Positions 1,869-54,720 of a stretch of DNA of 64,000 nucleotides are shown piece after piece; the stretch's first letter is position 1; the number at the start of each line of letters is the position of its first letter. A program made the position numbers and the translations under genes. Below the pieces are notes generated by a model. It did not search any database and was not told where the DNA came from. It saw only the letters and a program-made list of their open reading frames with translations. Location: the IMG/VR virus record IMGVR_UViG_3300044557_000281, positions 1-64,000 of that record. The stretch is one strand, 5' to 3'. Origin of the DNA: a virus. Taxonomy: Duplodnaviria; Caudoviricetes.

Positions 1869-4800
1869 TTAGTTGTATTGTGTGTATATGTCTGGTAAAG
1901 TAGGTGACATTGTTTCGTTTAACCATAGGTTGTTAAATTCATAACCAGCCCCATAGTTAACATCTACTAATCGTTCGTACCCTAGCATACTATAAACACA
2001 TGCTTGACCATACAACTAGAAGCATAATCTTGTTAAGAAGCTTCTAGCTAGACTATATCATCAATAATCATATTAGTCAATATAATTATTGGTACACGCT
2101 TCCCACCTTAGAGTTTCACTAAAGTAGTACAGATTTCATCAGCATAGCTACTAAGCCTTAGCTAGTATATCTTAGTCGTTAGACCTTCAAAGCATTTTCA
2201 TGCTAAGCTTGGCACAGGATTAGCATGAAAATGCTTTCCCTGTTAGCTTGCTTATTAACCATCATTTCTTATGGCTACTTAACCGTTAAACAAACACCCT
2301 ATAAGTATAGGTTCATGTACTTTATCGACCACTAATTTGTCAATGGTCGTCTCCTCTGCGTTTAATTATTTGATAAAATTCACCAGTTTTTTGGTCTTCT
2401 TCATCACGAATAACAATATTTCCCCAGTGTTCAATAAAGCGTTTTAATTCTTCATCAACTTCCCACCAGAAACCAATTTCTCCACCTTTCATCTTAGCAA
2501 TGTATCGTTTGTTTTGCATAAGTTTATCAGCAGAAACAATACTATTTTGCTCTGACCATGAAGGAATTAAATTACCAGTAGATTTAGGGGTGCTGGGATA
2601 TTTGCAACCGAATACTTTTTGTTTCCCATAATAAGCAATCAGTTGCGCAAGCTTTTCTCCACTATCCCCAATATCAGCCACAATAATATCCGGACTGTAG
2701 GGGGCTAGTTCTGCAATAATACTTTGTAAGTCAACCCCAATTGCTTTAGGGTCTACTATACTTGATTTACCAACAGAAAATAATCGAATCAAGTCTACTT
2801 GTCCATTGGTTCTTACACCGTGAACAGCACACCAATGACGATTTCCCCAATCGATACCCACCGAGATAAATTTATAATCTCCTCGGCTCATACGTTGTGT
2901 TGGTAAATCTTGTTTTCTGTGTTCTAATACGTCCTCTTGGTGAACACTTAATTTCTTATCTTCGTAGGGGTATCCAAGTGTGTAATTCCAAAACGCTTGC
3001 TTGGATAATGACGCTAGTTCTTTGCGTTTTAGGTCGTCAGCGGTACGGGCATACCGTAGTTTTCACTATACTTTAACACTGATTTAACAGTCGGACTAGA
3101 CTATATCATAAACCTACTTTTTGGTGTAGGTTTCCTTGCTTTACTTTCTCTTACGAGATTTTCTTATCTGGTTTTCACTAGTACCATTTTACTAGTTATC
3201 CAGAAATTTAGTCGTTAGGCTTTTATAGTGCATTGCACTGATTTAGCACGGGATTAACTCTGTCCATATAGGATTTAGTCTCTCTTATCAGCTTATTGGT
3301 TATTCAGCTATGCCCGTTTAACAAGGTTTACTCTCTTATCATTGCTAATAAGGTGGGCTATTACTTAACCCACACCGCGTTCATTTGGCTTATCATGTAC
3401 CCTCTTGTACCTTGACCACCTTTAGTACGGTCAGGGAATTTAGGAACCCCATTGTTAACTACCGCTACTTTCGTAGTATTTAATACGGATTGGACTATAT
3501 CATATTCTTATATTTTGGCATAAGAATCTCTACGTTACGCTATTGCTGTTGGCATTTTTTTGTAAAATCTTCGACTACTTCTAACACTTTATTTTACATT
3601 TGTAGTTTGTATGATACTCTGATAGCAGAGTAATTCTACCGCCATTTGCTTTTACAGCTTCTTCTCTGTAGCTTTCTGGTGTTTGTTTTATACCTTTCAT
3701 AATGTGTTCTCCTTAACTGTGCCAACAGTTCTAATAGCTTTCTCTTAGTTCTCACTAACCCCATTTGGTTAGCTACCCAAGAATTTAGTCTCTAGGCTTT
3801 TATAGCGCTTTGCGCTAGTTTAGCACGGTAGGTAAACTCTATCCTTGCATATTAGGACTTAGTCTTTCTTACCAGTATATTCTTTGTATATGCATTATTT
3901 TACTATGCCCGTTTAGTAGAGTTTAAGGTGTACAGGTCTGTTTATACACCGTTGTACCATCTGTCTAGTGGCTCTCCACACTTTTGGCAAACGAATTGGA
4001 AGGAACCATCTACGACAGTCTTAGCGAGTACGTCAACCCCTTTAGGGTTAACACAATAAATATTGCCACGTTTCTCAATTGGTGCTTCTGGATTATAATC
4101 CTCATAACTCATTTCGTTATAGTGATTACATTTAGGGCATTTGTGCATATACACAAATTGGTCGGATTGCTCAAACACACGGTGTATGCCCATGTGAGGG
4201 GTACTTGGTGTCGACCAACGGTTTATAATTTTGAATGGTGAACTTGACATGGATTCGATAGCAGACATTTCAGCAAAAGCTGGAACCCTATCATATTCGT
4301 CCCGAAAATACCGTAGTTTTCACTATACTTTAACACTGATTTAACAGTCGGACTAGACTATATCATAAACCTACTTTTTGGTGTAGGTTTCCTTGCTTTA
4401 CTTTCTCTTACGAGATTTTCTTATCTGGTTTTCACTAGTACCATTTTACTAGTTATCCAGAAATTTAGTCGTTAGGCTTTTACAGTGCGTTGCACTGATT
4501 TAGCACGGGATTAACTCTGTCCATATAGGATTTAGTCTCTCTTATCAGCTTATTGGTTATTCAGCTATGCCCGTTTAACAAGGTTTTCTATAGAAATTAC
4601 TTCCTATAGCCACTATAACTCAAAATGGCTAAATAGTCTATATCAATCTAAGAAACCCTCACTTTCGTGATATTTAATAGGGACTAGACTATATCATACC
4701 CCTCCTATTCGGTGGAGGGGTCTCTCCGTTACTTCCTACAAAACTTTAGTTAATCTTATATTTTTGCTCTTTATTTAAAACAATTCCTTGTACTGCCATT

Positions 4801-7371
4801 TTTAGCTCGTTATTTAAAACATAATAAGGTATACGATACAAATCTGTAGACAGTGTTTGGAAAAACTTATTGGTTTGGTCATCCTTCTGTTTTACTTTAG
4901 TTAGATAATCCATACCACCCCAAAGCTCCGTAGGTTCATAGTGCTGTCTACCATCGTACTCAATGACAATATCAAGCTCTGGTAAATAGAAGTCTAATCT
5001 ACGGACACCTACGTTAGGTATGTCAAACGTTTTTTCTTGCTCGTACTTTACACCTAGTTCATCAAGCATATAGGCAATCATTTCTTCCCCACCGCTCTCC
5101 TTACAATGTTTACAACCGTAACCACGCATAAACGCATTGTATTGAACATCCAGTTTGTTCCCACACTTTTCATGAGTAATATTAACAAACATATGATGGT
5201 TTTTCATATACACTTTGTTTAAAGTAAAGTTAGGTCTATTTTCTCTCATATAGTCTAGAACATCTTCCTCAGTGTGTCGGTAGATATTTGAGCAGTACTG
5301 ACAACCGGATGTTCCTGTTTTTACAATCCGAGATAAATTTTGTAGGGACGTGTGTACAGTTTTTCCACAAGGGATATGGATAAAATCAGTAGAATACTTT
5401 ATTAACTCAGGGTACTCTACAATTTCAAATGTCTTATCAAGACCAAGTTCTTTAAATCGCTTATCAAACTTGTCTTTAACACTTGCTCTATGTCGAGCAC
5501 GTTTATCTTCTTCCATACACATTTGACATGGTATCTTTTGAGCGCCAATAGAGTGTGGTATCTTATTAAATCGGTACCCACAAGTTAAACATTCAAAGTC
5601 GGCATGAGTTCGAGCATTCACATATTCAGAAACTAATCTGACATGTTTACGCTCCATTGTTTTAATAAAAGATTCTGGTATTTTTTTCATAGTAATAGTT
5701 TGTGTAGGTTTTCTTATCTAGTTCTCACTAATCCCATTTGATTAGCTACCTAGAAATTTAGTCGTTACACTTTCCTCCTTAATTTGATAAATTAACTATA
5801 ACATAAATATTATTTAGTGTCAATACCTATGTAGTCAATTGTTTTAAAGAGGTTTAGCACGGGATTAACACTATCCTAAAACTAGGACTTAGTCTCTCTT
5901 ATCAGCTTATTGGTTATTCAGCTATGCCCGTTTAGAAGAGTTTTTCGACACTAATCACTTAGTGAAGGGGCATTGTAAGTCTACCCTCTACTGCGCCCGG
6001 TTTAGAACTAGAACGAAAATATAAATAACTATCACGTATTTTCTTTGCTTTCAATGAATCTAGTTCTGGGTCGGCTATTGTCTTGTAGTACCCTTTTTCT
6101 AATAACGGATTTAGCCGTGTTTGTACGAACTTCAACATCTGCTCGTTGGTAGGAAATGTATAAAGTGCTTTAACTGCACTGTGACTGTACGTGTCTACAA
6201 AGTGTAATAACTTTCCTACACCAATTTCACTTAACCCGAGCTGACGCGACTTAATTACGGCTAAATTCTTGTGTGTGTCATTTAATACTTGTACTTGCCC
6301 ATTGAGTGTACCCTCGGTTTCCCGATATTTATTAGGGGACTAGACTATATCATCAACCTATCTTTTGGTTTAGGTTGCTCTACGTTACTTTCTCTTACGA
6401 GATTTTCTTATCTAGTTCTCACTAATCCCATTTGATTAGTTACCTAGAAATTTAGTCGTTAGAGTTTCAAATAAGAACAGTTAGTTATATTTATATGTTT
6501 AATAGCAGAACTCCCAACCTTTATAACTTTGTTGCTTTCCTGACAGGCATCTCCTTATACCATTTCTATCTAGTTGAGTGTCTCTTGCACACTCGTTTTG
6601 ACTTAGGTATGTTTTCCTAACACCTGTTGGGGAAGTAGCAGTGAACTTAGTCATATGGCTAGGCTGATATTTATTATTGACTTCCTTAGATATCCATATG
6701 CAGGTTTCGGTGGAATACTTTTTAGCCCCTTTAATGTCTTTGTCTAGTTGAAGCTCTCCTGCGTAGAACCTACTCTCATCCCAACCGTCAATATCACTAA
6801 TGTCTTCTAAGGAATAGTCGAAGCAGTGCCACCTAGCGTCTATGGTAACATCTTTGTAAGCATTAGCTCGAATATGCTTGGCATCATAACACCGCTTTAG
6901 CATACCTTGCCAGACACTAAAAGCTCTGCTATCAGTTCTGTAATTTGTCTCTATAAAATAACCCTTATTATAATAGCTAATGTTAAACACCCCCTTATTA
7001 GCTATTATATCATTTAACTATGGTTTTGTTAAGTACTGCTCTTATTTGTTTACTACGGTAGGTTAACTCTGTCCTTGCATATTAGGATTTAGTCTTTCTT
7101 ACCAGTATATTCTTTGTATATGCATTATTTTACTATGCCCGTTTAGTAGAGTTTATAGACCACAGCATTTTTATGGTCGGTGACTTTGCCGCTTAGTTTG
7201 GTCACGGTCGGAAATAACAAAGGTAATCGGGTGATTACGTATGGTGTGATTTCTCAACAAGTACGTGGAAGTTTGGGTCATATCTAGCAAGTAGCTAAGC
7301 TGTTCAGTTGAAATTCTTTCGGTACCGAACATTTGCCTAGACATACCAGCTAAGTGATTTCCATCTACCAT
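1869..7371 (-). CDS. terL: Terminase large subunit, 7 exons: 7371-7173, 6299-5983, 4647-4625, 4302-3944, 3449-3368, 3045-2343, 2012-1869
   Basis: Exons sum to 1827 nt (608 aa + stop). Join restores RPWQ, KSRQLGLSE, Walker B IDIDYLAMDE, STP, GIDWG and GDDHYGQA, collinear with recalled phage K-type TerL. Confidence 0.93.
2013..2342 (-). ncRNA. Group I intron terL-I6 (330 nt, no ORF)
   Basis: P1 CGACCAU/GUGGUCG; terminal G at 2013 before TAT GGT CAA. Confidence 0.9.
3046..3367 (-). ncRNA. Group I intron terL-I5 (322 nt, no ORF)
   Basis: P1 GUGGGU/GCCCAC; terminal G at 3046; core near-identical to I3. Confidence 0.9.
3450..3943 (-). ncRNA. Group I intron terL-I4 (494 nt, endonuclease remnant)
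   Basis: P1 GGUGUAU/GUACACC; P10 GGGUU; terminal G at 3450. Confidence 0.9.
3581..3700 (-). pseudogene. 39-codon remnant of an intron endonuclease
   Basis: RBS AGGAG + MKGIKQTPESYREEAVKANGGRITLLSEYHTNYKCKIKC*; resembles the N-terminus of the I2 ORF. Confidence 0.55.
4303..4624 (-). ncRNA. Group I intron terL-I3 (322 nt, no ORF)
   Basis: P1 UAGCCAU/GUGGCUA; terminal G; core near-identical to I5. Confidence 0.9.
4648..5982 (-). ncRNA. Group I intron terL-I2 (carries endonuclease ORF)
   Basis: P1 GGGU/GCCC; P7 core; terminal G at 4648 before ATT GAT ATA GAC. Confidence 0.88.
4746..5690 (-). CDS. Intron-encoded Vsr/DUF559-like homing endonuclease with Zn-ribbon repeats
   Basis: CxxC repeats; C-terminal RLDFYLP..IVIEYDGRQHY. 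Confidence 0.78.
   Translation of the reverse strand: MKKIPESFIKTMERKHVRLVSEYVNARTHADFECLTCGYRFNKIPHSIGAQKIPCQMCMEEDKRARHRASVKDKFDKRFKELGLDKTFEIVEYPELIKYSTDFIHIPCGKTVHTSLQNLSRIVKTGTSGCQYCSNIYRHTEEDVLDYMRENRPNFTLNKVYMKNHHMFVNITHEKCGNKLDVQYNAFMRGYGCKHCKESGGEEMIAYMLDELGVKYEQEKTFDIPNVGVRRLDFYLPELDIVIEYDGRQHYEPTELWGGMDYLTKVKQKDDQTNKFFQTLSTDLYRIPYYVLNNELKMAVQGIVLNKEQKYKIN
6300..7172 (-). ncRNA. Group I intron terL-I1 (carries HNH ORF)
   Basis: P1 ACCAU/GUGGU with U-G pair at the splice site; P7 GACUA/UAGUC; terminal G; P10 with GGCA. Confidence 0.9.
6499..6990 (-). CDS. Intron-encoded HNH-type homing endonuclease with C-terminal NUMOD1-like domain
   Basis: WQGMLKRCY, LDKD..YS.ETC.WI...NN, SQNECAR...CLSGK; lies inside terL-I1. 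Confidence 0.8.
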   Translation of the reverse strand: MFNISYYNKGYFIETNYRTDSRAFSVWQGMLKRCYDAKHIRANAYKDVTIDARWHCFDYSLEDISDIDGWDESRFYAGELQLDKDIKGAKKYSTETCIWISKEVNNKYQPSHMTKFTATSPTGVRKTYLSQNECARDTQLDRNGIRRCLSGKQQSYKGWEFCY

Positions 7372-13734: not shown

Positions 13735-16700
13735 TTGTATTTGACAACAGCAACAACAGCATTAGCTACTAAGGTGGCTAAAAGAGATGGTCGGACTGTT
13801 AAGTTTACAAACAACCGTATCAAAAAATCTATTAGAAAAGCTTGTTTTGATGTTTCTTTAGGGGATAAAGAAACTAAGGAATTAGTAGAACGGGTAACAG
13901 AAACGCTTACCCCTCATATTAGCCAAAGACAAGAAATTTCAGTAGAAACCATTGAAGATTTAGTGGTAGAACAGTTAGAAGTGCTTGGTGCAAAAGATGT
14001 AGCAGAATCTTATCGTGTGTATCGTATGCAACGAACTATTGAAAGAGAACAACAAACAGATGTTACTCATGCAATAGGGAAATTAATTGCTAGGGATAAA
14101 ACGGTAATCAATGAAAATGCCAACAAGGACGCTAACACTATTCCGGCTAACCGTGATTTAACAGCAGGCGTAGTAGCAAAAGCAGAGGGGCTTAAAATGT
14201 TACCAAAACGTGTAGCGAATGCTCATTTAAAAGGGGATATTCACTTCCATGATTTAACCAACAGCCCTTATGATGTTAGTACCAATTGTTGCTTAATTGA
14301 TTTTAAGACCATGTTATCTAACGGGTTTAAGATGGGCAATGCTCAAATTGAATCACCAAAATCTATACAAACTGCCACAACAGTAGCTTCGCAAATTATT
14401 GCCAATGTAGCCAGTCAACAATTTGGTTAGGACACTTGCCGTTTTCATAGGTAACTATGATTATTATTACCGAGGTAACAACAGGAAGGCTGTAAAATGC
14501 TAACCCGAAGGGAAGGTTAAAAATAACATTTTAACCACATGCAACGCATAGATTTTGAAACTGGTTTAACCAGAATATAGTAAATCCAAGAGACCACGGC
14601 ACCCTAGATAATAGGGTGAAAAGATATGCTAAACTGGGTATGAAAGAACATACCAATGAAAATGAAGGAAACTTCCAGAGCTATAGATAATAACCTATAG
14701 GATAATAACAATTTGGGGTGCTCATTTGACCGCATAGACGAGGTGCTAGCCCCGTATGCAGAAATGAACTACAAAAAGCATTTAAGTGAAGCTAAGCAAT
14801 ATGTATTTCCAGAAATGCAAGAACAGTACGCAAAGAACAAAACTAAGAAAGATATTTATGACGCTTTCCAAAGTCTTGAGTGAGCATTCACGCCCAAGTA
14901 AAACTTATCTAAACAGGGAAACTCTTAATAAGACAATCCTGTACAAAGTATATTTTTTAATATATGCGTGCAACGACTATCGAAAACAGAAACTAATATT
15001 ACAGGTATTAGTGGAGAAGTGAGTAGAGTACAATTCAAGTGAATTGGAAAAGGTGAGGTTCTGTAAGTAACGATACAGAATATGATATAGTCTGAACTAT
15101 ATGGTGACATATAGAAGGTACAATCTAACGAATTGTATCGTAACATAATGATGAAGTAAATACTTTGTATACCGCTAACGGTTAAGTTTGGCTGTTATAA
15201 AACTATGTGAACCTATATTTGTAGGGTGTTTACTTAACGGTTAAGGAACTATAGGAAATGATAGTTAGTAAGTAAACTAACAGGGGAAGCTAAGGCAGTA
15301 GCTATGCTAATCCTGTGCTAAGCCTTAATAAAGGAAAGTGCAACGACTATCGAAAGCAGAAATCAATAAGAAAATTATTGGTAGGTAAGTGAGTAGAGTA
15401 CAGATTAAGTGTGAATCTTAACTGGAAGCGCATAGAGAATGAAATGAGTGAATCAAAACTAATTTGAACTTGTTTTGTTTTAAGATATAGTCTGGATTTA
15501 TGGAAACATAAAGAGGTGCTACAAACACCGTTTACCACGATTGCCGGTTTCTTAGGCACTAACTGGTTCGAGAGAGAAATACAAAAAGCAATTCTTAATG
15601 TTAGATTAGTTGGACTTGGAGCTGACAAAAAGACAGCAATATTCCCTAAGATACTGTTCACCCTTAAAAAAGGTGTAAACTTTTCAGCAGAAGACCCTAA
15701 CTATGATATTAAGCAATTAGCAATGAAATGTTCACAAGCAAGAATTTACCCTAAGCAACGTTGGGGCTTTATTAAGTAATTAATAAGTGATAATGTGGTG
15801 AACCTAGTTAAAGGGTGTCCTTAATAAGGGCTAACGGGCATAGCTGAATAACCAATAGGCTGATAAGAGAACCTAAGTCCTACATGGATAGTGGCAATCC
15901 CGTGCCAAGACTACTAATAAACATACATTTAATTTTAAACATAGGGAGTTGATTACACATGGAAAAAGATGAGTTATTACAGCTAGCAATAGACGGGTAC
16001 CTCAAGGAGGTAGAAACTATTACTTACATTGAATGCCCTGTCTGTCATGCAAAACTTACCTATAAATGGAAAAGTTCCCTACGCAATATTAAAAGTATAC
16101 ATGGAGCTAACTGCAGCAAATACTACCAGAACCAAGTAACTAAGGAGTTAGGCGAGCAAGCTTGTAAGAAATTCTCAAGCACATACCGTCATGCAAAAGA
16201 ACGTTGTACAAATAAAAACTCTAAAGATTATTACTGTTATAAAGGGAAGTGGGGATTTACTGATTATGTAGATTATCACTTTTGTTGCTATAGCAGTTTT
16301 AGGGACGCTTGGTTACGGAAAATAGAAAATATTTCTATTGATAGGATAGACGGGAATTTAGGCTATGAAAAGGATAATGTTAGGTTTATATCTATGGGGG
16401 ATAATTTAAGAAACAAGGATAGAATAAAACCAGTTATGGCTTTAAACATAGAAACTAATGAATGTCTTACAGCTAACAGTTTAGCTTCTCTTGTAAATAG
16501 TAATAGTACCACTTTTAAGTCGTTAAGTGCTATGCACCACCATCTTAAGAACGGTGGATTATACAAGAAAAAATGGAAAGTGGTTTATCAGTAGTAAGGT
16601 GTATCGACTAAATTGTGCATATGCACTAAGACCTACGAGATTAACACGTAGGGTAGCGCCACACACCCAAGAAATATTGGGTGATGATATAGTCAGGTTA

Positions 16701-18030
16701 AGTAGAAATGCTTAAAGAATAACGGACGTATTAAATTATGATAAACTTGTGGAAATTACTGGCTCATATAAAGCCAGCATGGGTTGCAGAAGTTTTTTAA
16801 ACAAATGGGTCAATGAACATGGAGAAGAAGTTCATGCTGGTCGTATGAATTTGGGTGTTATTTCATTAAACACACCAAGAATTGGGATTGAATCAGAAGG
16901 AAATGTTGAAACTTTCTGGGAACTTTTCAATGAACGATTAGACATTGTTCATGAGGGGCTACAATTCCGAATTAAACGTTGTAAGGAAGCGCAACCTAAG
17001 AATGCACCAATGCTTTATAAACAAGGTGCATTCGGTCATTACCTTACAGATGAGGATACAGTAGACCAACTGTTCGACAATGAACGAGCTACCGTTTCTA
17101 TCGGCTATATTGGCTTATATGAAACAATGACAGCTTTGTTCGGTAATCCTAATTGGGAAACCAATAAAGATATTTATGCTTTTTCTATCGAAGTAGTGAG
17201 ACGTATTGCTGAAAAAGCTGAAAAATGGTCTAAAGAAGAAGAAATCCATTATTCATTGTATGCCACACCAAGTGAATCAATGACTGACCGGTTCTGTAGA
17301 TTAGATACCGCTAAGTTCGGTATTATCAAAGACATTACAGACAAAGGTTTTTATGTGAACTCATTCCATTTAGACACACGAAAAGATTGGTCTCCAATGG
17401 ATAAGATTGATTTTGAATCACCTTACCCTAAATACTCTAATGGTGGGTTTATTCACTATGTAGAAGCAGTTATTCCTAAGCACAATCTGAAAGCTATGGA
17501 ACAACTTTGGGACTACTCGTACGACAAACTAGGATATTTTGGTGTTAATACGCCAATAGATAAATGTTTGAAATGTGGTTTCGAGGGAGACTTTCACGCT
17601 ACCGAGGACGGCTACGAATGTCCAGAGTGTGGGAATAATGACCCAGAAACCTGTGATGTTGTAAAACGACTTTGTGGGTTAACTTAAAGGCTCACATTAA
17701 ACTGTATAAATTGACGGGGACTACCTTAGAGCTTTTACTACTAACTTACTGTGGTGACACAGGCAAGGGCTAGCATAATTAACTAGGTATAGTAAAAAAG
17801 TAAAAGATTGGTAAATCCGCAACGAAACTTCACTACCGTCACATGTTAGTGAAGGACGCTCAACGACTATAATTACGGATGAGGTTAGTCAAACCTCATA
17901 AGGTATAGTCTACTCCCCTAATAAATATCGGGAAACCGAGGGTACTAAGGATTTAGGACAACCACAATTACGCCCCGAAGTTAAGGGAAGACGTAAAGAA
18001 ATAATGAGTCGGGTTAAACACCAACAATAA
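13735..18030 (+). CDS. nrdD: Anaerobic ribonucleotide reductase, 6 exons: 13735-14427, 14716-14881, 15151-15182, 15522-15752, 16725-17679, 17951-18030
   Basis: Exons sum to 2157 nt (718 aa + stop); ATP cone, HFHD, NCC, QFGGCS, EYEVNT..NGQTPF, YPDV, MGCRS, CxxC..CxxC, RLCGYLG. Confidence 0.9.
14428..14715 (+). ncRNA. Group I intron nrdD-N1 (288 nt)
   Basis: P1 UGGU/GCCG; P10 GGGUG/CACUU; terminal G. Confidence 0.85.
14882..15150 (+). ncRNA. Group I intron nrdD-N2 (269 nt)
   Basis: P1 CUUGAGU/GCCCAAG; P7 GACUA/UAGUC; terminal G. Confidence 0.88.
15183..15521 (+). ncRNA. Group I intron nrdD-N3 (~339 nt; 3' end atypical)
   Basis: P1 UAACGGU/GCUGUUA; P7 core; P10 CAAAC/GUUUG places the 3' junction after A15521. 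Confidence 0.75.
15753..16724 (+). ncRNA. Group I intron nrdD-N4 (carries HNH ORF)
   Basis: P1 CCCU/GGGG; P10 GACGU/ACGUU; terminal G at 16724. Confidence 0.88.
15959..16594 (+). CDS. Intron-encoded HNH homing endonuclease
   Basis: SIDRIDGNLGYEKDNVRFI...N; C-terminal NUMOD-like segment. Confidence 0.8.
   Translation: MEKDELLQLAIDGYLKEVETITYIECPVCHAKLTYKWKSSLRNIKSIHGANCSKYYQNQVTKELGEQACKKFSSTYRHAKERCTNKNSKDYYCYKGKWGFTDYVDYHFCCYSSFRDAWLRKIENISIDRIDGNLGYEKDNVRFISMGDNLRNKDRIKPVMALNIETNECLTANSLASLVNSNSTTFKSLSAMHHHLKNGGLYKKKWKVVYQ
17680..17950 (+). ncRNA. Group I intron nrdD-N5 (271 nt), splits the Tyr codon of RLCGYLG
   Basis: P1 UGUGGGU/GCUCACA; terminal G at 17950. Confidence 0.9.
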
Positions 18031-21640: not shown

Positions 21641-23220
21641 GATTTTACGCCAGGAAACTCGGTATTTTAATGCCGAGAGGAATGGCGTCCTTTCTATAAT
21701 TTAGTGTAATTTAGTATTGACAAAATGCTCGATTTCTGCTATAATAGAAGTATCTTAAGTAGAAAGGGGCCCTTATGGAATCTGCAATTTCTTTAAAATT
21801 TAGACTATATCCAACACCAGAACAAAGCCGAGCCTTTTCAGACCTTTGTCAACGTTATGCCAACGCCTGTAATTTTGCAAGTCAATATGCCTTTGACAAC
21901 GGAATGATTACTTCAGTCATTGACTTAAACAGAGGCATATACTTAAACCTTCGTCAAAAGTTTAACCTTAAAGCTCAGTTAGCACAGTCTGTTTCACGTA
22001 CAGTTACTGCACGATATAAAACAATACGTAAACAAATGCAAAAGAATCCTTATGTTTGCAAGTACGAAGTGATACCTAAGAATCTTGATAAAACAAAGTC
22101 TAAAAATAAAAAGTTTAAAACAGTATACGTTAGTCGAAATTTAGACTGGTTACAAAAACCTGTACAATTCAATCGTCCACAAGCGGATTTAGTAAGAAAC
22201 CGTGACTATAGTTTTGTAGAAAATTGCACTAAACTGTCAATTAATACATTAAACAAACGTGTAAAAGTAGATTTTAGTATTAAAGGTTTTGAACATTACC
22301 TTGACGATTATAAACTTGGTACAGCTAAGTTGGTTAAGTCTAATGGAAAATGGTTCTTGCATGTAGGCGCAACAAAAACCGTTGAAGACTTACCCGACGT
22401 TAAACACGTTGTGGGTATTGACCGTGGTTTACGCCAATTGATGGTCACCTATGATGAAGATGGACAGACCGCCTTTTATTCTGGACAAACCGCACGTCGT
22501 AAACGTGACCATTATTCAGCCTTAAGGGCTTCTCTGCAAAGACGTAATACCAAATCTTCCAGACGACGCTTGCGTCGTCTCGGTAACAAAGAGAACCGCT
22601 GGATGACAGATTATAATCATCAGTTATCAAAGACACTTTGTTCAAAATATGAAAATGATACGGTATTTGTTCTTGAAGACTTAAGTGGCGTTCAGTTCGC
22701 TGCAGACAACCAGTCGAAGCAACGTAAGTCTGATAATCATACCTGGGCATTCTATCAATTGGGACAGTTTCTTGCTTATAAAGCAATTCAAAATCGTTCT
22801 ATGATATTGAAAGTAGACCCGGCATACACCAGTCAACGTTGTCCTAAATGCGAACGTATTGACAAAGAACAACGCGACCATAAGTTACATGAGTACCGTT
22901 GTGAATGTGGATACGTAAGTAACGATGACCGTTTGGCTGCAATGAACATTCAAATTTTAGGGCAGTACATTCTTGCACATCCAGAATTTAAAACACGGCC
23001 TTCGTATAAAACATTAACAGGCTTGGCATAAATGTCAACCTTATTGCCGGTGCAATCAACCACCGGGTCTAAGCAGCGGCTTAATACGCTATGACTTAGA
23101 TGAGTAGCATCCTCGCATTAAACATTGATTAAGCCAAGGTTTAAGGTGTTAGAAGTGACTTCGTCATGCTTGACTAACATTTGAGTTGCAAACTCGGTAC
23201 TTTAGTGCCGAGTAGTTGAT
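21641..23220 (+). mobile_element. IS200/IS605-family tnpB-only element
   Basis: Subterminal hairpins CTCGGTATTTTAATGCCGAG (left) and CTCGGTACTTTAGTGCCGAG (right); TGAT at the junctions. Confidence 0.8.
21775..23031 (+). CDS. tnpB: RNA-guided nuclease TnpB
   Basis: RLYPTPEQ; RuvC GIDRG, VLEDL, NDDRLAA; CPKC/CECG Zn finger. Confidence 0.9.
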   Translation: MESAISLKFRLYPTPEQSRAFSDLCQRYANACNFASQYAFDNGMITSVIDLNRGIYLNLRQKFNLKAQLAQSVSRTVTARYKTIRKQMQKNPYVCKYEVIPKNLDKTKSKNKKFKTVYVSRNLDWLQKPVQFNRPQADLVRNRDYSFVENCTKLSINTLNKRVKVDFSIKGFEHYLDDYKLGTAKLVKSNGKWFLHVGATKTVEDLPDVKHVVGIDRGLRQLMVTYDEDGQTAFYSGQTARRKRDHYSALRASLQRRNTKSSRRRLRRLGNKENRWMTDYNHQLSKTLCSKYENDTVFVLEDLSGVQFAADNQSKQRKSDNHTWAFYQLGQFLAYKAIQNRSMILKVDPAYTSQRCPKCERIDKEQRDHKLHEYRCECGYVSNDDRLAAMNIQILGQYILAHPEFKTRPSYKTLTGLA

Positions 23221-53832: not shown

Positions 53833-54720
53833 TTAGAATAGTTGTAAAGTATTGTTAATAGCAGAAGCCATCATATCTACTGTATTGTCTAACCAACACA
53901 CAGCCGTATGCTGTTTTCCTTTAGCACTAGGCGTAAGTAATTTGCCATATGCCACAGCACTCACTTCACCGTAGGCGCGAATAGTGAACATATCCTGTTT
54001 TCCCGAATGACTTCCAAGGAATACAACACCGCTCTCATTATCAGCTTGCTTCATAGAGGTCATTAACAGATGAGCCAACTCATTGTTGTACCGTTCATTG
54101 TACGTCACACCCACTAAGACTTTTGAATTAGTGTGGAAATAGCTTACACGGTTAGGTTTATTAGCTAAGTCCATACAATAGTCATAGACTTGTTTCCCCC
54201 GTGAGTGTATTAAGTAGTTTAATGTACTGAATGGTGAGGCTTCATTGTTTGCTAAAACACTCCACCAATGAACACTGTTTTCTTCTAATGAGTAGTGTAG
54301 CCCTACAGCAGAAACAAATAATGGGTCTTCTGTCTTGTACGCATGGTACATTTGAATAAGGTTAAGAAATAACTCCATCCTTTTCTGGCTGTTATAATCA
54401 AAGTGAAAGAAGTTTCTTTGGTTTAACCACTCATATAGTAAGACTGTTGGGGATAGTCTTTCATGGTAGAGGTCTTGGTAATTAGTTGGTGGTCTGGTTT
54501 TAGATTCCTCACCATATGACCCTACCCGTAATATTTGCTTGGCGTACTCTACTTGGTTCCATTCCGTTTTGTCAAAATAAGAGTTCCCAGTAATGACTAT
54601 ATCTTCTGTCCCTATTAAGCTAGTGCTCTCTAGTGGTAACACAGGAACTTCGGTATAGTTTGCAATAATAGTTAGCTCTTTTGTTAGCGTGGCTTTTGTT
54701 TGTTTAATATAGATGGTCAT
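53833..54720 (-). CDS. DHH/DHHA1-like phosphoesterase-fold protein (degenerate)
   Basis: C-terminal FTIR..SAV.YG..AKGK; likely start MTIYIKQ at 54720. Confidence 0.5.
   Translation of the reverse strand: MTIYIKQTKATLTKELTIIANYTEVPVLPLESTSLIGTEDIVITGNSYFDKTEWNQVEYAKQILRVGSYGEESKTRPPTNYQDLYHERLSPTVLLYEWLNQRNFFHFDYNSQKRMELFLNLIQMYHAYKTEDPLFVSAVGLHYSLEENSVHWWSVLANNEASPFSTLNYLIHSRGKQVYDYCMDLANKPNRVSYFHTNSKVLVGVTYNERYNNELAHLLMTSMKQADNESGVVFLGSHSGKQDMFTIRAYGEVSAVAYGKLLTPSAKGKQHTAVCWLDNTVDMMASAINNTLQLF

Follow-up and report, generated by a model that had tools for sequence, protein, structure and literature searches.

Several small group I introns within a single gene have been described in phages of the Herelleviridae. 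The gene orf142 of Staphylococcus phage Twort holds three introns of type IA2 that lack an open reading frame (ORF), the ribozyme of one of them (I2) has a crystal structure, and exon skipping has been reported (PMC3984707; PMC11878797). For Bacillus phage SIOphi, the passages of PMC11878797 on TerL introns describe an in vitro splicing reaction whose dominant product skips an internal exon. The route by which group I introns reach new sites is regarded as open, with reverse splicing being without direct evidence and illegitimate repair being the other candidate (PMC3984707). Related group I introns at different sites of nuclear ribosomal DNA (rDNA) have been taken as evidence of spread by reverse splicing (PMC1299323; PMC3984707). 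Here, a gene for the terminase large subunit (TerL), which serves DNA packaging, is described with six interrupting introns in a window of 64,000 nucleotides (nt), positions 1 to 64,000 of the IMG/VR virus record IMGVR_UViG_3300044557_000281. Two of these introns, I3 and I5, have an almost identical ribozyme core but address different exons, and this twin core is probably best explained by a recent intragenic gene conversion between two separate, older introns.

As in Twort, a late gene of a Herelleviridae phage is interrupted in the window by several small IA2 introns without an ORF, and the P7.1/P7.2 architecture is common to both, although the gene is a different one. Like the TerL introns, the nuclear rDNA introns occupy several sites at which 4-6 bases of the exon end fit the guide (here, exons ending in GGGU, CCAU or CCCU), but those are introns of rRNA with a much deeper divergence, and nothing in the window shows an RNA intermediate. 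In phage T4, core elements of group I introns reportedly recombine to give hybrid introns with deletion of the intervening DNA, as is said to have been found by Hall, Liu and Shub in 1989 and by Bryk and Belfort in 1990, both in Nature; these events are said to have been laboratory crossovers between introns of different genes that have only short conserved elements in common. Crossing-over between I3 and I5 would act alike, whereas here a homogenisation without crossover appears to have been kept in a natural genome.

The TerL gene, of a Herelleviridae-type phage, lies at 1869-7371 on the minus strand and was recognised as seven colinear pieces with tblastn using the TerL of phage EF24C as query. 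Exon borders were placed by P1 pairing and the omega-G, and splicing of the seven exons yields a single open frame of 608 amino acids (aa). Sites are named by residue numbers on the spliced EF24C protein, so that the six introns lie at s67, s173, s181, s301, s328 and s563. I3 (4303-4624, minus strand) interrupts s181 inside the Met codon of YLAM/DEY (a slash between sequences marks a splice junction), and I5 (3046-3367, minus strand) interrupts s328 inside the Val codon of AVWV/TAD, both in phase 2. Both are ORF-less group I introns of the IA2 type, 322 nt long, and an ORF check of the two found no endonuclease-sized ORF in either. The equal length, the near-identity over about 270 nt and the lack of an endonuclease had all been proposed in an earlier note on this DNA and are borne out.

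Aligned without gaps over 322 nt, I3 and I5 differ at 33 positions, which are distributed very unevenly. The first 35 nt, comprising P1 and P2, differ at 27 positions, and the last five at three, in agreement with the claim that P1 with its guide and the last nucleotides are unlike. Over nt 36-317 only 3 of 282 positions differ (nt 38, 136 and 142); of these, the earlier note had correctly seen those at nt 136 and 142 but not that at nt 38. The probability that at most three of 33 random mismatches fall in this 282-nt block is 2.6e-30 (hypergeometric). A repeat search returned the same block, matching 3051-3332 to 4308-4589 at 99% over 282 nt, and within it the two copies agree without a mismatch over stretches of about 97 and 175 nt. 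The differences at nt 136 and 142 both lie in the peripheral P6a hairpin, one in the loop and the other unpairing, as the change at nt 142 disrupts in I5 the C-G pair that closes the hairpin. In the same genome, the next-best matches to the twin core are fragments of 49-134 nt at 75-90% identity. The block of near-identity thus has abrupt borders inside otherwise diverged introns, as a gene-conversion tract requires.

Each intron can accordingly be divided into a 5' targeting module, a core and a short 3' linker, all on the minus strand. The module of I3 (4590-4624) contains the P1 loop, the guide GUGGCUA and the P2 hairpin; that of I5 (3333-3367) contains a P1 loop, the guide GCCCAC and a P2 hairpin. 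The core runs from J2/3 over P3-P9 and a terminal GNRA-type hairpin to a conserved GGUAU, at 4308-4589 in I3 and 3051-3332 in I5. The linkers, each ending in the omega-G, are UUUCG in I3 (4303-4307), which fits the form found in the EF24C family member (AUUCG), and GCCCG in I5 (3046-3050).

The guides fit their own exons, as had been claimed. The exon end UAGCCAU and the guide GUGGCUA of I3 form seven contiguous pairs, and GUGGGU and GCCCAC of I5 form six, with the last pair being U.G in both cases. When the guides are crossed, three pairs are left between the I3 guide and the s328 exon and two in the other combination. Shuffling of the first 30 intron bases equalled the pairing of I3 in 70 of 5000 trials and that of I5 in 412 of 5000. 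The splice junctions read YLAM/DEYDRV and NAVWV/TADDL, colinear with the TerL of EF24C, which is intron-free at both sites, and excision of either intron up to its omega-G restores the reading frame. The 3' splice sites are furthermore backed by homology, since the end of an EF24C intron falls on the corresponding G. Sites 9 nt further upstream, which keep the frame in both twins and would add the residues YFR or YAR, were rejected as alternative 3' splice sites: the end of the EF24C homologue corresponds to the downstream G, and the added residues are absent from intron-free proteins. Visual inspection for P10 and P9.0 pairings with the variable 3'-terminal bases gave nothing convincing. Both introns are predicted to splice.

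The assignment to group I rests on both profile matches and covariation. Both twins match the Rfam model RF00028 from end to end (E = 5e-8 and 1e-6). Their scores, 41.9 and 37.4 bits, lie under the gathering score of 50 and hence do not reach the curated threshold, and the shortfall is located in the long P5 and P7.1/7.2 insertions. Ten ORF-less relatives, taken from phages of Enterococcus, Listeria and Bacillus, were aligned and share a consensus fold with P2, P3, P4, P5/5a, P6/6a, P7.1, P7.2, P8 and a terminal GNRA hairpin, in which 40 of 67 pairs show compensatory changes, indicating that the members of this family are real ribozymes. P3 covaries, for example, between CCUUG with CAAGG and CUCUG with CAGAG, whereas the P7 strands GACUA and UAGUC are invariant and therefore uninformative. 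A hairpin UCUGG...CCAGA with inner stem CUAGUA and UACUAG and a hairpin UCUC-GUAA-GAGA are found in the single-sequence as well as in the consensus folds, and they covary. This P7.1/P7.2 insertion, which lies between P7 and the 3' strand of P3, assigns the family to the phage type IA2, to which Twort and T4 introns belong.

A competing pairing was also observed. The 3' end of I5 together with the first exon base (UAUGCCCGU; 3046-3054) exactly complements the J3/4-P4 strand ACGGGCAUA (3309-3317), and the same motif is present in every intron of the family. The minimum-energy fold of I5 by RNAfold takes the helix of UAUGCCCGU with ACGGGCAUA in place of P4, at -91.8 kcal/mol compared to -83.3 kcal/mol for I3. 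In addition, CGGUA-UGCCCG/UACCG is able to form a hairpin that spans the 3' splice site of I5.

The relationship of the address modules can be judged from the TerL introns of related phages, in which the first 35-45 nt are specific for the site and conserved across phages. The s90 module, for example, hardly varies among six Enterococcus phage records and Listeria phage A511, and is recognisable in SIOphi. The insertion sites fall into classes with a common exon end: exons ending in CCAU (s67, s181 and s563) are addressed by the guide GUGGyy, those ending in GGGU (s90, s173, s303, s328, s352 and s395/397) by GCCC, and those ending in CCCU (s117 and s213/214) by GGGG. In z-scores that come from short sequences, the modules of I3 and I5 are no closer to each other than shuffled sequence (z = -0.3), the I3 module resembles that of the s181 intron of Enterococcus phage Car (z = 6.0, reached in 0 of 1000 shuffles), and the I5 module resembles the modules that target GGGU (z = 2.6-6.1 overall), with the best scores for SIOphi s395 (z = 6.1), Enterococcus phage phiEF17H s90 (z = 4.2) and SIOphi s90 and s303 (z = 3.3-3.5). 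The Car intron is the only other intron known at s181. Each address module thus appears to belong to an older lineage that is found in other Herelleviridae phages. Since the two modules are unrelated, one guide has not been reprogrammed into the other; the proposal that a single ribozyme was retargeted by guide reprogramming is not supported, as the whole 35-nt P1-P2 region including the P2 hairpin differs, while gene conversion of the core, which had been offered beside it, is favoured by the comparative data.

The bodies have a different history. A maximum-likelihood tree built from the first ~185 nt downstream of P3 unites I3 and I5 in a clade (support 99/99), with the phiEF17H s90 intron as nearest neighbour. 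The P3-P8 part of the twin core is closest to this same intron (85%), whereas P7'-P9 is closest to the EF24C s117 intron (90%), which makes the twin core itself a mosaic. The Car s181 intron has the address of the I3 type, but its body lies in the other major clade, beside Car's own s397 intron (95%). With the same site and the same address on unrelated bodies, the body at s181 must have been replaced at least once. Such a comparison of the same flank with a different body is available at the site of I3 only, no second intron being known at s328.

The borders of the identical tract coincide with conserved blocks. Identity begins at the J2/3-P3-P4 block, where AAACGGGCAUAG is almost invariant in the family, and ends at the conserved GGUA a few bases before the omega-G. 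The 4-7 bases from GGUA to the omega-G differ in nearly all of the ten aligned introns, being identical only in the s90 pair of phiEF17H and A511. Conversion of a base presumably depends on homologous sequence to either side of it, which would put the bases beside non-homologous exons out of reach, and P1 would additionally be kept site-specific by selection, as it must fit the exon. In the proposed mechanism, I3 and I5 would have been separate IA2-type introns, each holding its own exon-suited address module of P1 guide and P2, and their bodies, 282 nt from P3 to the last hairpin, would recently have been homogenised by homologous recombination or gene conversion, either inside one genome or between replicating copies. 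The tract would begin at J2/3-P3-P4, the first block conserved downstream of P2, and end at GGUA, the last such block before the 3' splice site, and the bases outside these blocks, having no homologous flank and, in the case of P1, being bound to the exon, would have remained site-specific.

Exchange between introns of one gene is also found in the same window. I4 and I1 have 108 nt in common at 95% identity (3818-3925 and 7048-7155), while the remainder differs; this is another exchanged block in the same gene.

Equivalent pairs in published phages are found in Enterococcus phages phiM1EF22, Car and Ef2.3 and in SIOphi, and are 95-99% identical from just after P1-P2. The most direct case is offered by the Kochikohdaviruses, several of which have TerL exons 100% identical to those of EF24C and vary in intron occupancy. 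The s67 intron is identical in Ef2.3, Sw5, KEN04 and phiEF17H, and the s67 intron of phiM1EF22 departs from these four exactly where it matches the s397 intron of its own genome. The two phiM1EF22 introns are 99.4% identical over 180 nt, and this identity is confined to the part after the P1-P2 and P3 strands, which are untouched. This is a case of gene conversion in which introns at separate sites of a single gene were the partners, and it took place within a short time. A comparison of states before and after conversion thus exists only in other phages (phiM1EF22 compared to Ef2.3). Further pairs are s181 and s397 of Car (95.4% over 194 nt), s67 and s397 of Ef2.3 (95.5% over 179 nt) and s90 and s303 of SIOphi (97.7% over 177 nt and 98% over 101 nt). 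A mirror case is given by the s117 intron of EF24C and the s213 intron of Enterococcus phage EFP01, which have an identical 38-nt P1-P2 module (1465-1502 in EF24C and ~4959-4996 in EFP01) on different bodies at sites that both end in CCCU, showing free reassortment at the J2/3-P3 junction.

Among these systems, SIOphi (Bastillevirinae) is the closest counterpart. Its twin introns, at 3466-3890 and 4495-4839, belong to the same gene and intron family, are both ORF-less, and have 98%-identical cores with unlike P1-P2 regions and last bases, in addition to a differing P6a loop. They occupy other sites than the window's twins and differ from each other by an insert of ~80 nt near P7.2/P8. The passages of PMC11878797 on TerL introns make no mention of the near-identity of the s90 and s303 introns, and this identity may be a cause of the exon skipping reported there. 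The Enterococcus phages of Kochikohdavirus and Schiekvirus (phiM1EF22, Car, Ef2.3 and EFP01) have the same intron family and site system as the window, with pairs in one gene that are 95-99% identical starting after P1-P2. In contrast to the window, where identity spans the whole ribozyme body and both introns are ORF-less, the identical tract in phiM1EF22, Car and Ef2.3 is limited to the 5' half, with 179-194 nt, and an endonuclease ORF is present in one partner or in both (the s67 partner in phiM1EF22 is ORF-less). None of the four Enterococcus phages uses s328. In the literature searched, nothing was found on introns of one phage gene that combine near-identical cores with different guides. 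Published relatives do show the pattern, which makes the I3/I5 pair an instructive case and not a novel type of element. As a separate observation, the TerL intron region of phiEF17H contains a perfect 315-nt tandem duplication (3711-4025 and 4025-4339), in which part of an exon, corresponding to EF24C residues 325-352, is copied as well.

We infer both the conversion in this lineage and its direction from these comparisons. I5 is mildly favoured as the donor of the body, as its address and the P3-P8 part of the core both seem to point to introns of the GGGU class. Several observations speak against a conversion between two older introns. The I3 module also scores z = 5.2-5.4 against s90 modules, which implies a general scaffold common to the modules, and the I5 module resembles other modules only moderately. 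No intron breaks the gene at s328 in at least 725 of 748 Herelleviridae records, so that nearly all relatives give no sign of an older intron there that could have been converted. The twin core is at most ~87% identical to anything elsewhere, with no close relative in the collections searched, and the event is for this reason not directly datable or polarisable. Lastly, the contig is a metagenome assembly.

The search for relatives was made at the level of both the exons and the introns. TerL exon 6 has a best identity of 68% among GenBank phages and 5.8 billion predicted proteins, the window's own protein aside, and a scan of IMG/VR with an exon 6 protein pattern found no close relatives. Exact searches of IMG/VR with the P1-P2 strings of I5 and I3 and with the junction pattern of the I5 site gave no matches, and neither did a 23-mer of the twin core. 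In metagenome contigs this 23-mer found one contig, of an EF24C-like phage with a single s90 intron that is 81-85% alike. At s328 itself, 288 DNA matches lose similarity precisely where the exon ends, with nothing like the 5' end of I5 beyond it. I5 may have colonised this site recently. The only phage match that breaks near s328 is Staphylococcus phage SPJ2, whose intron was considered as an I5 orthologue and rejected, being unrelated and inserted 6 nt upstream, after GCGGU. The small group I intron of SPJ2 (~4755-5000) indicates that a short stretch of TerL draws introns in more than one lineage.

The emptiness of s328 in relatives fits the first alternative, a recent duplicative spread in which one intron was copied to s328 as a new site and gained a new guide region later. 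The identical length of exactly 322 nt fits such a copy, and the occupation of several sites with a common 4-nt exon end (GGGU, CCCU) would be expected of guide-directed ectopic insertion. Moreover, the exon context of I5, AAC GCG GTG TGG GT/T (AVWV), nearly copies that of s303 (GVWV) 25 codons upstream, where SIOphi has an intron with the guide GCCCA and where the guide of I5 would pair over 6 base pairs (bp). A copy of I3, however, would bring the I3 guide, which has only three contiguous pairs with the s328 exon, and should bring the last five bases of I3 as well, so that the differing 3' linker weighs against simple duplication; a fresh copy leaves this and the 27 differences in P1-P2 unexplained. 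A second recombination that swaps P1-P2 would be needed anyway, one step more than conversion requires, and duplication is considered unlikely.

Still less probable is a separate import of both introns, by homing or recombination in co-infection, from phages that already had the core at both sites. The varying intron occupancy among phages with identical TerL exons, the mosaic nature of the twin core and an endonuclease-bearing intron at 23 nt from I3 are in line with such traffic, but no donor with the twin core was found in GenBank phages, IMG/VR or the metagenome contig scan, and import merely shifts the same homogenising event to another genome. An assembly artefact, with one intron path threaded through two similar repeats or with strain mixtures merged, is very improbable even for a metagenomic contig estimated at 60% completeness with exact repeat runs of this length, as three internal differences are kept separate, each intron has biologically coherent junctions at either end, with a U.G-ended P1, an omega-G, a restored frame and modules typical of the family, an assembler is unable to create similarity between unlike sequences, and isolate genomes show the same kind of pair.

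Beyond gene conversion of the twin core, a broader picture can be proposed tentatively, although we hold it to be rather doubtful as a whole. The TerL introns of Herelleviridae might constitute a recombining population of exchangeable address modules and bodies joined at J2/3-P3-P4, with I5 as an early colonisation in which an address of the GGGU class settled on look-alike 'WV' codons, 25 codons past a known site, and then came to share the body of its neighbour. If true, group I introns would have a way of reaching new sites at the level of DNA, which reviews still count among the unresolved steps. Natural material for the question is provided by the same body on two modules (I3 and I5; SIOphi s90 and s303), by the same module on two bodies at two sites (EF24C s117 and EFP01 s213) and by insertion sites that fall into few classes sharing a 4-nt exon end.

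The twin arrangement also has consequences for the gene. The 282-bp direct repeats lie 1257 bp apart, and the earlier note was right to expect that recombination between I3 and I5 would delete exons 4 and 5: the 1257 bp contain 441 nt of exon, or 147 codons, in frame. Such a crossover would leave a hybrid intron and, as both introns are in phase 2, an in-frame product, which should be dead since it would be without the Walker B acidic residues that open exon 4. Direct repeats in an essential gene are in this sense a deletion hazard. At the RNA level, the identical bodies are likely, by analogy, to invite pairing of the 5' site of I3 with the 3' site of I5 and hence exon skipping, which, in comparison with SIOphi, would stay in frame because both twins have the same codon phase.

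The remaining parts of the TerL gene, all on the minus strand, are arranged as follows. Exon E1 (7371-7173) and exon E2 (6299-5983) are followed by E3 (4647-4625), a micro-exon of 23 nt that encodes IDIDYLA plus AT and gives the P1 partner of I3. E4 (4302-3944; 359 nt) lies between the twins and opens with the Walker B acidic pair DE, E5 (3449-3368; 82 nt) supplies with its 3' end the P1 partner of I5, E6 (3045-2343) encodes the nuclease domain (phrog_675), and E7 (2012-1869) completes the gene. Between the twins, I4 (3450-3943; 494 nt) occupies s301, divides a Trp codon (T/GG) and forms P1 from GGUGUAU and GUACACC. Endonuclease ORFs are found in the neighbouring introns I1 and I2. I2 (4648-5982) carries an HNH/VSR-type homing endonuclease ORF (4746-5717; phrog_559) and, lying upstream of I3, ends at a distance of 23 nt from it, so that its endonuclease could be a source of double-strand breaks and co-conversion near I3. 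E3 (4625-4647), between the endonuclease-bearing I2 and I3, doubles as the 3' exon of I2 and the P1 partner of I3. The source contig has 90 kb, and it is that of a metagenomic Herelleviridae phage with no close relative. Gene callers fragment intron-rich genes of this kind, and terminase-based classification of phages therefore needs the spliced frame.

Elsewhere in the window and genome, further group I elements are indicated. The P7' motif GATATAGTC has 11 exact copies in the window, compared to 0.47 expected. Outside terL and nrdD it occurs at 21803-21811 and 54595-54603 of the window and at 66865 and 80627 of the genome, in each case on the minus strand, and these extra copies suggest more group I introns in other genes. 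On the plus strand, 13735-18030 contains four further Rfam group I matches, of which those at 14856-15114 and 15209-15513 are over the gathering score and those at 16534-16715 and 17648-17933 are under it, and one stretch there (15833-15908) matches the twin core over 76 nt at 87% identity. Finally, upstream of a 179-aa ORF on the minus strand (585-1124), for which no Pfam match was found, the window contains a dense array of about a dozen repeats centred on TGTCATGAATA (1183-1780).

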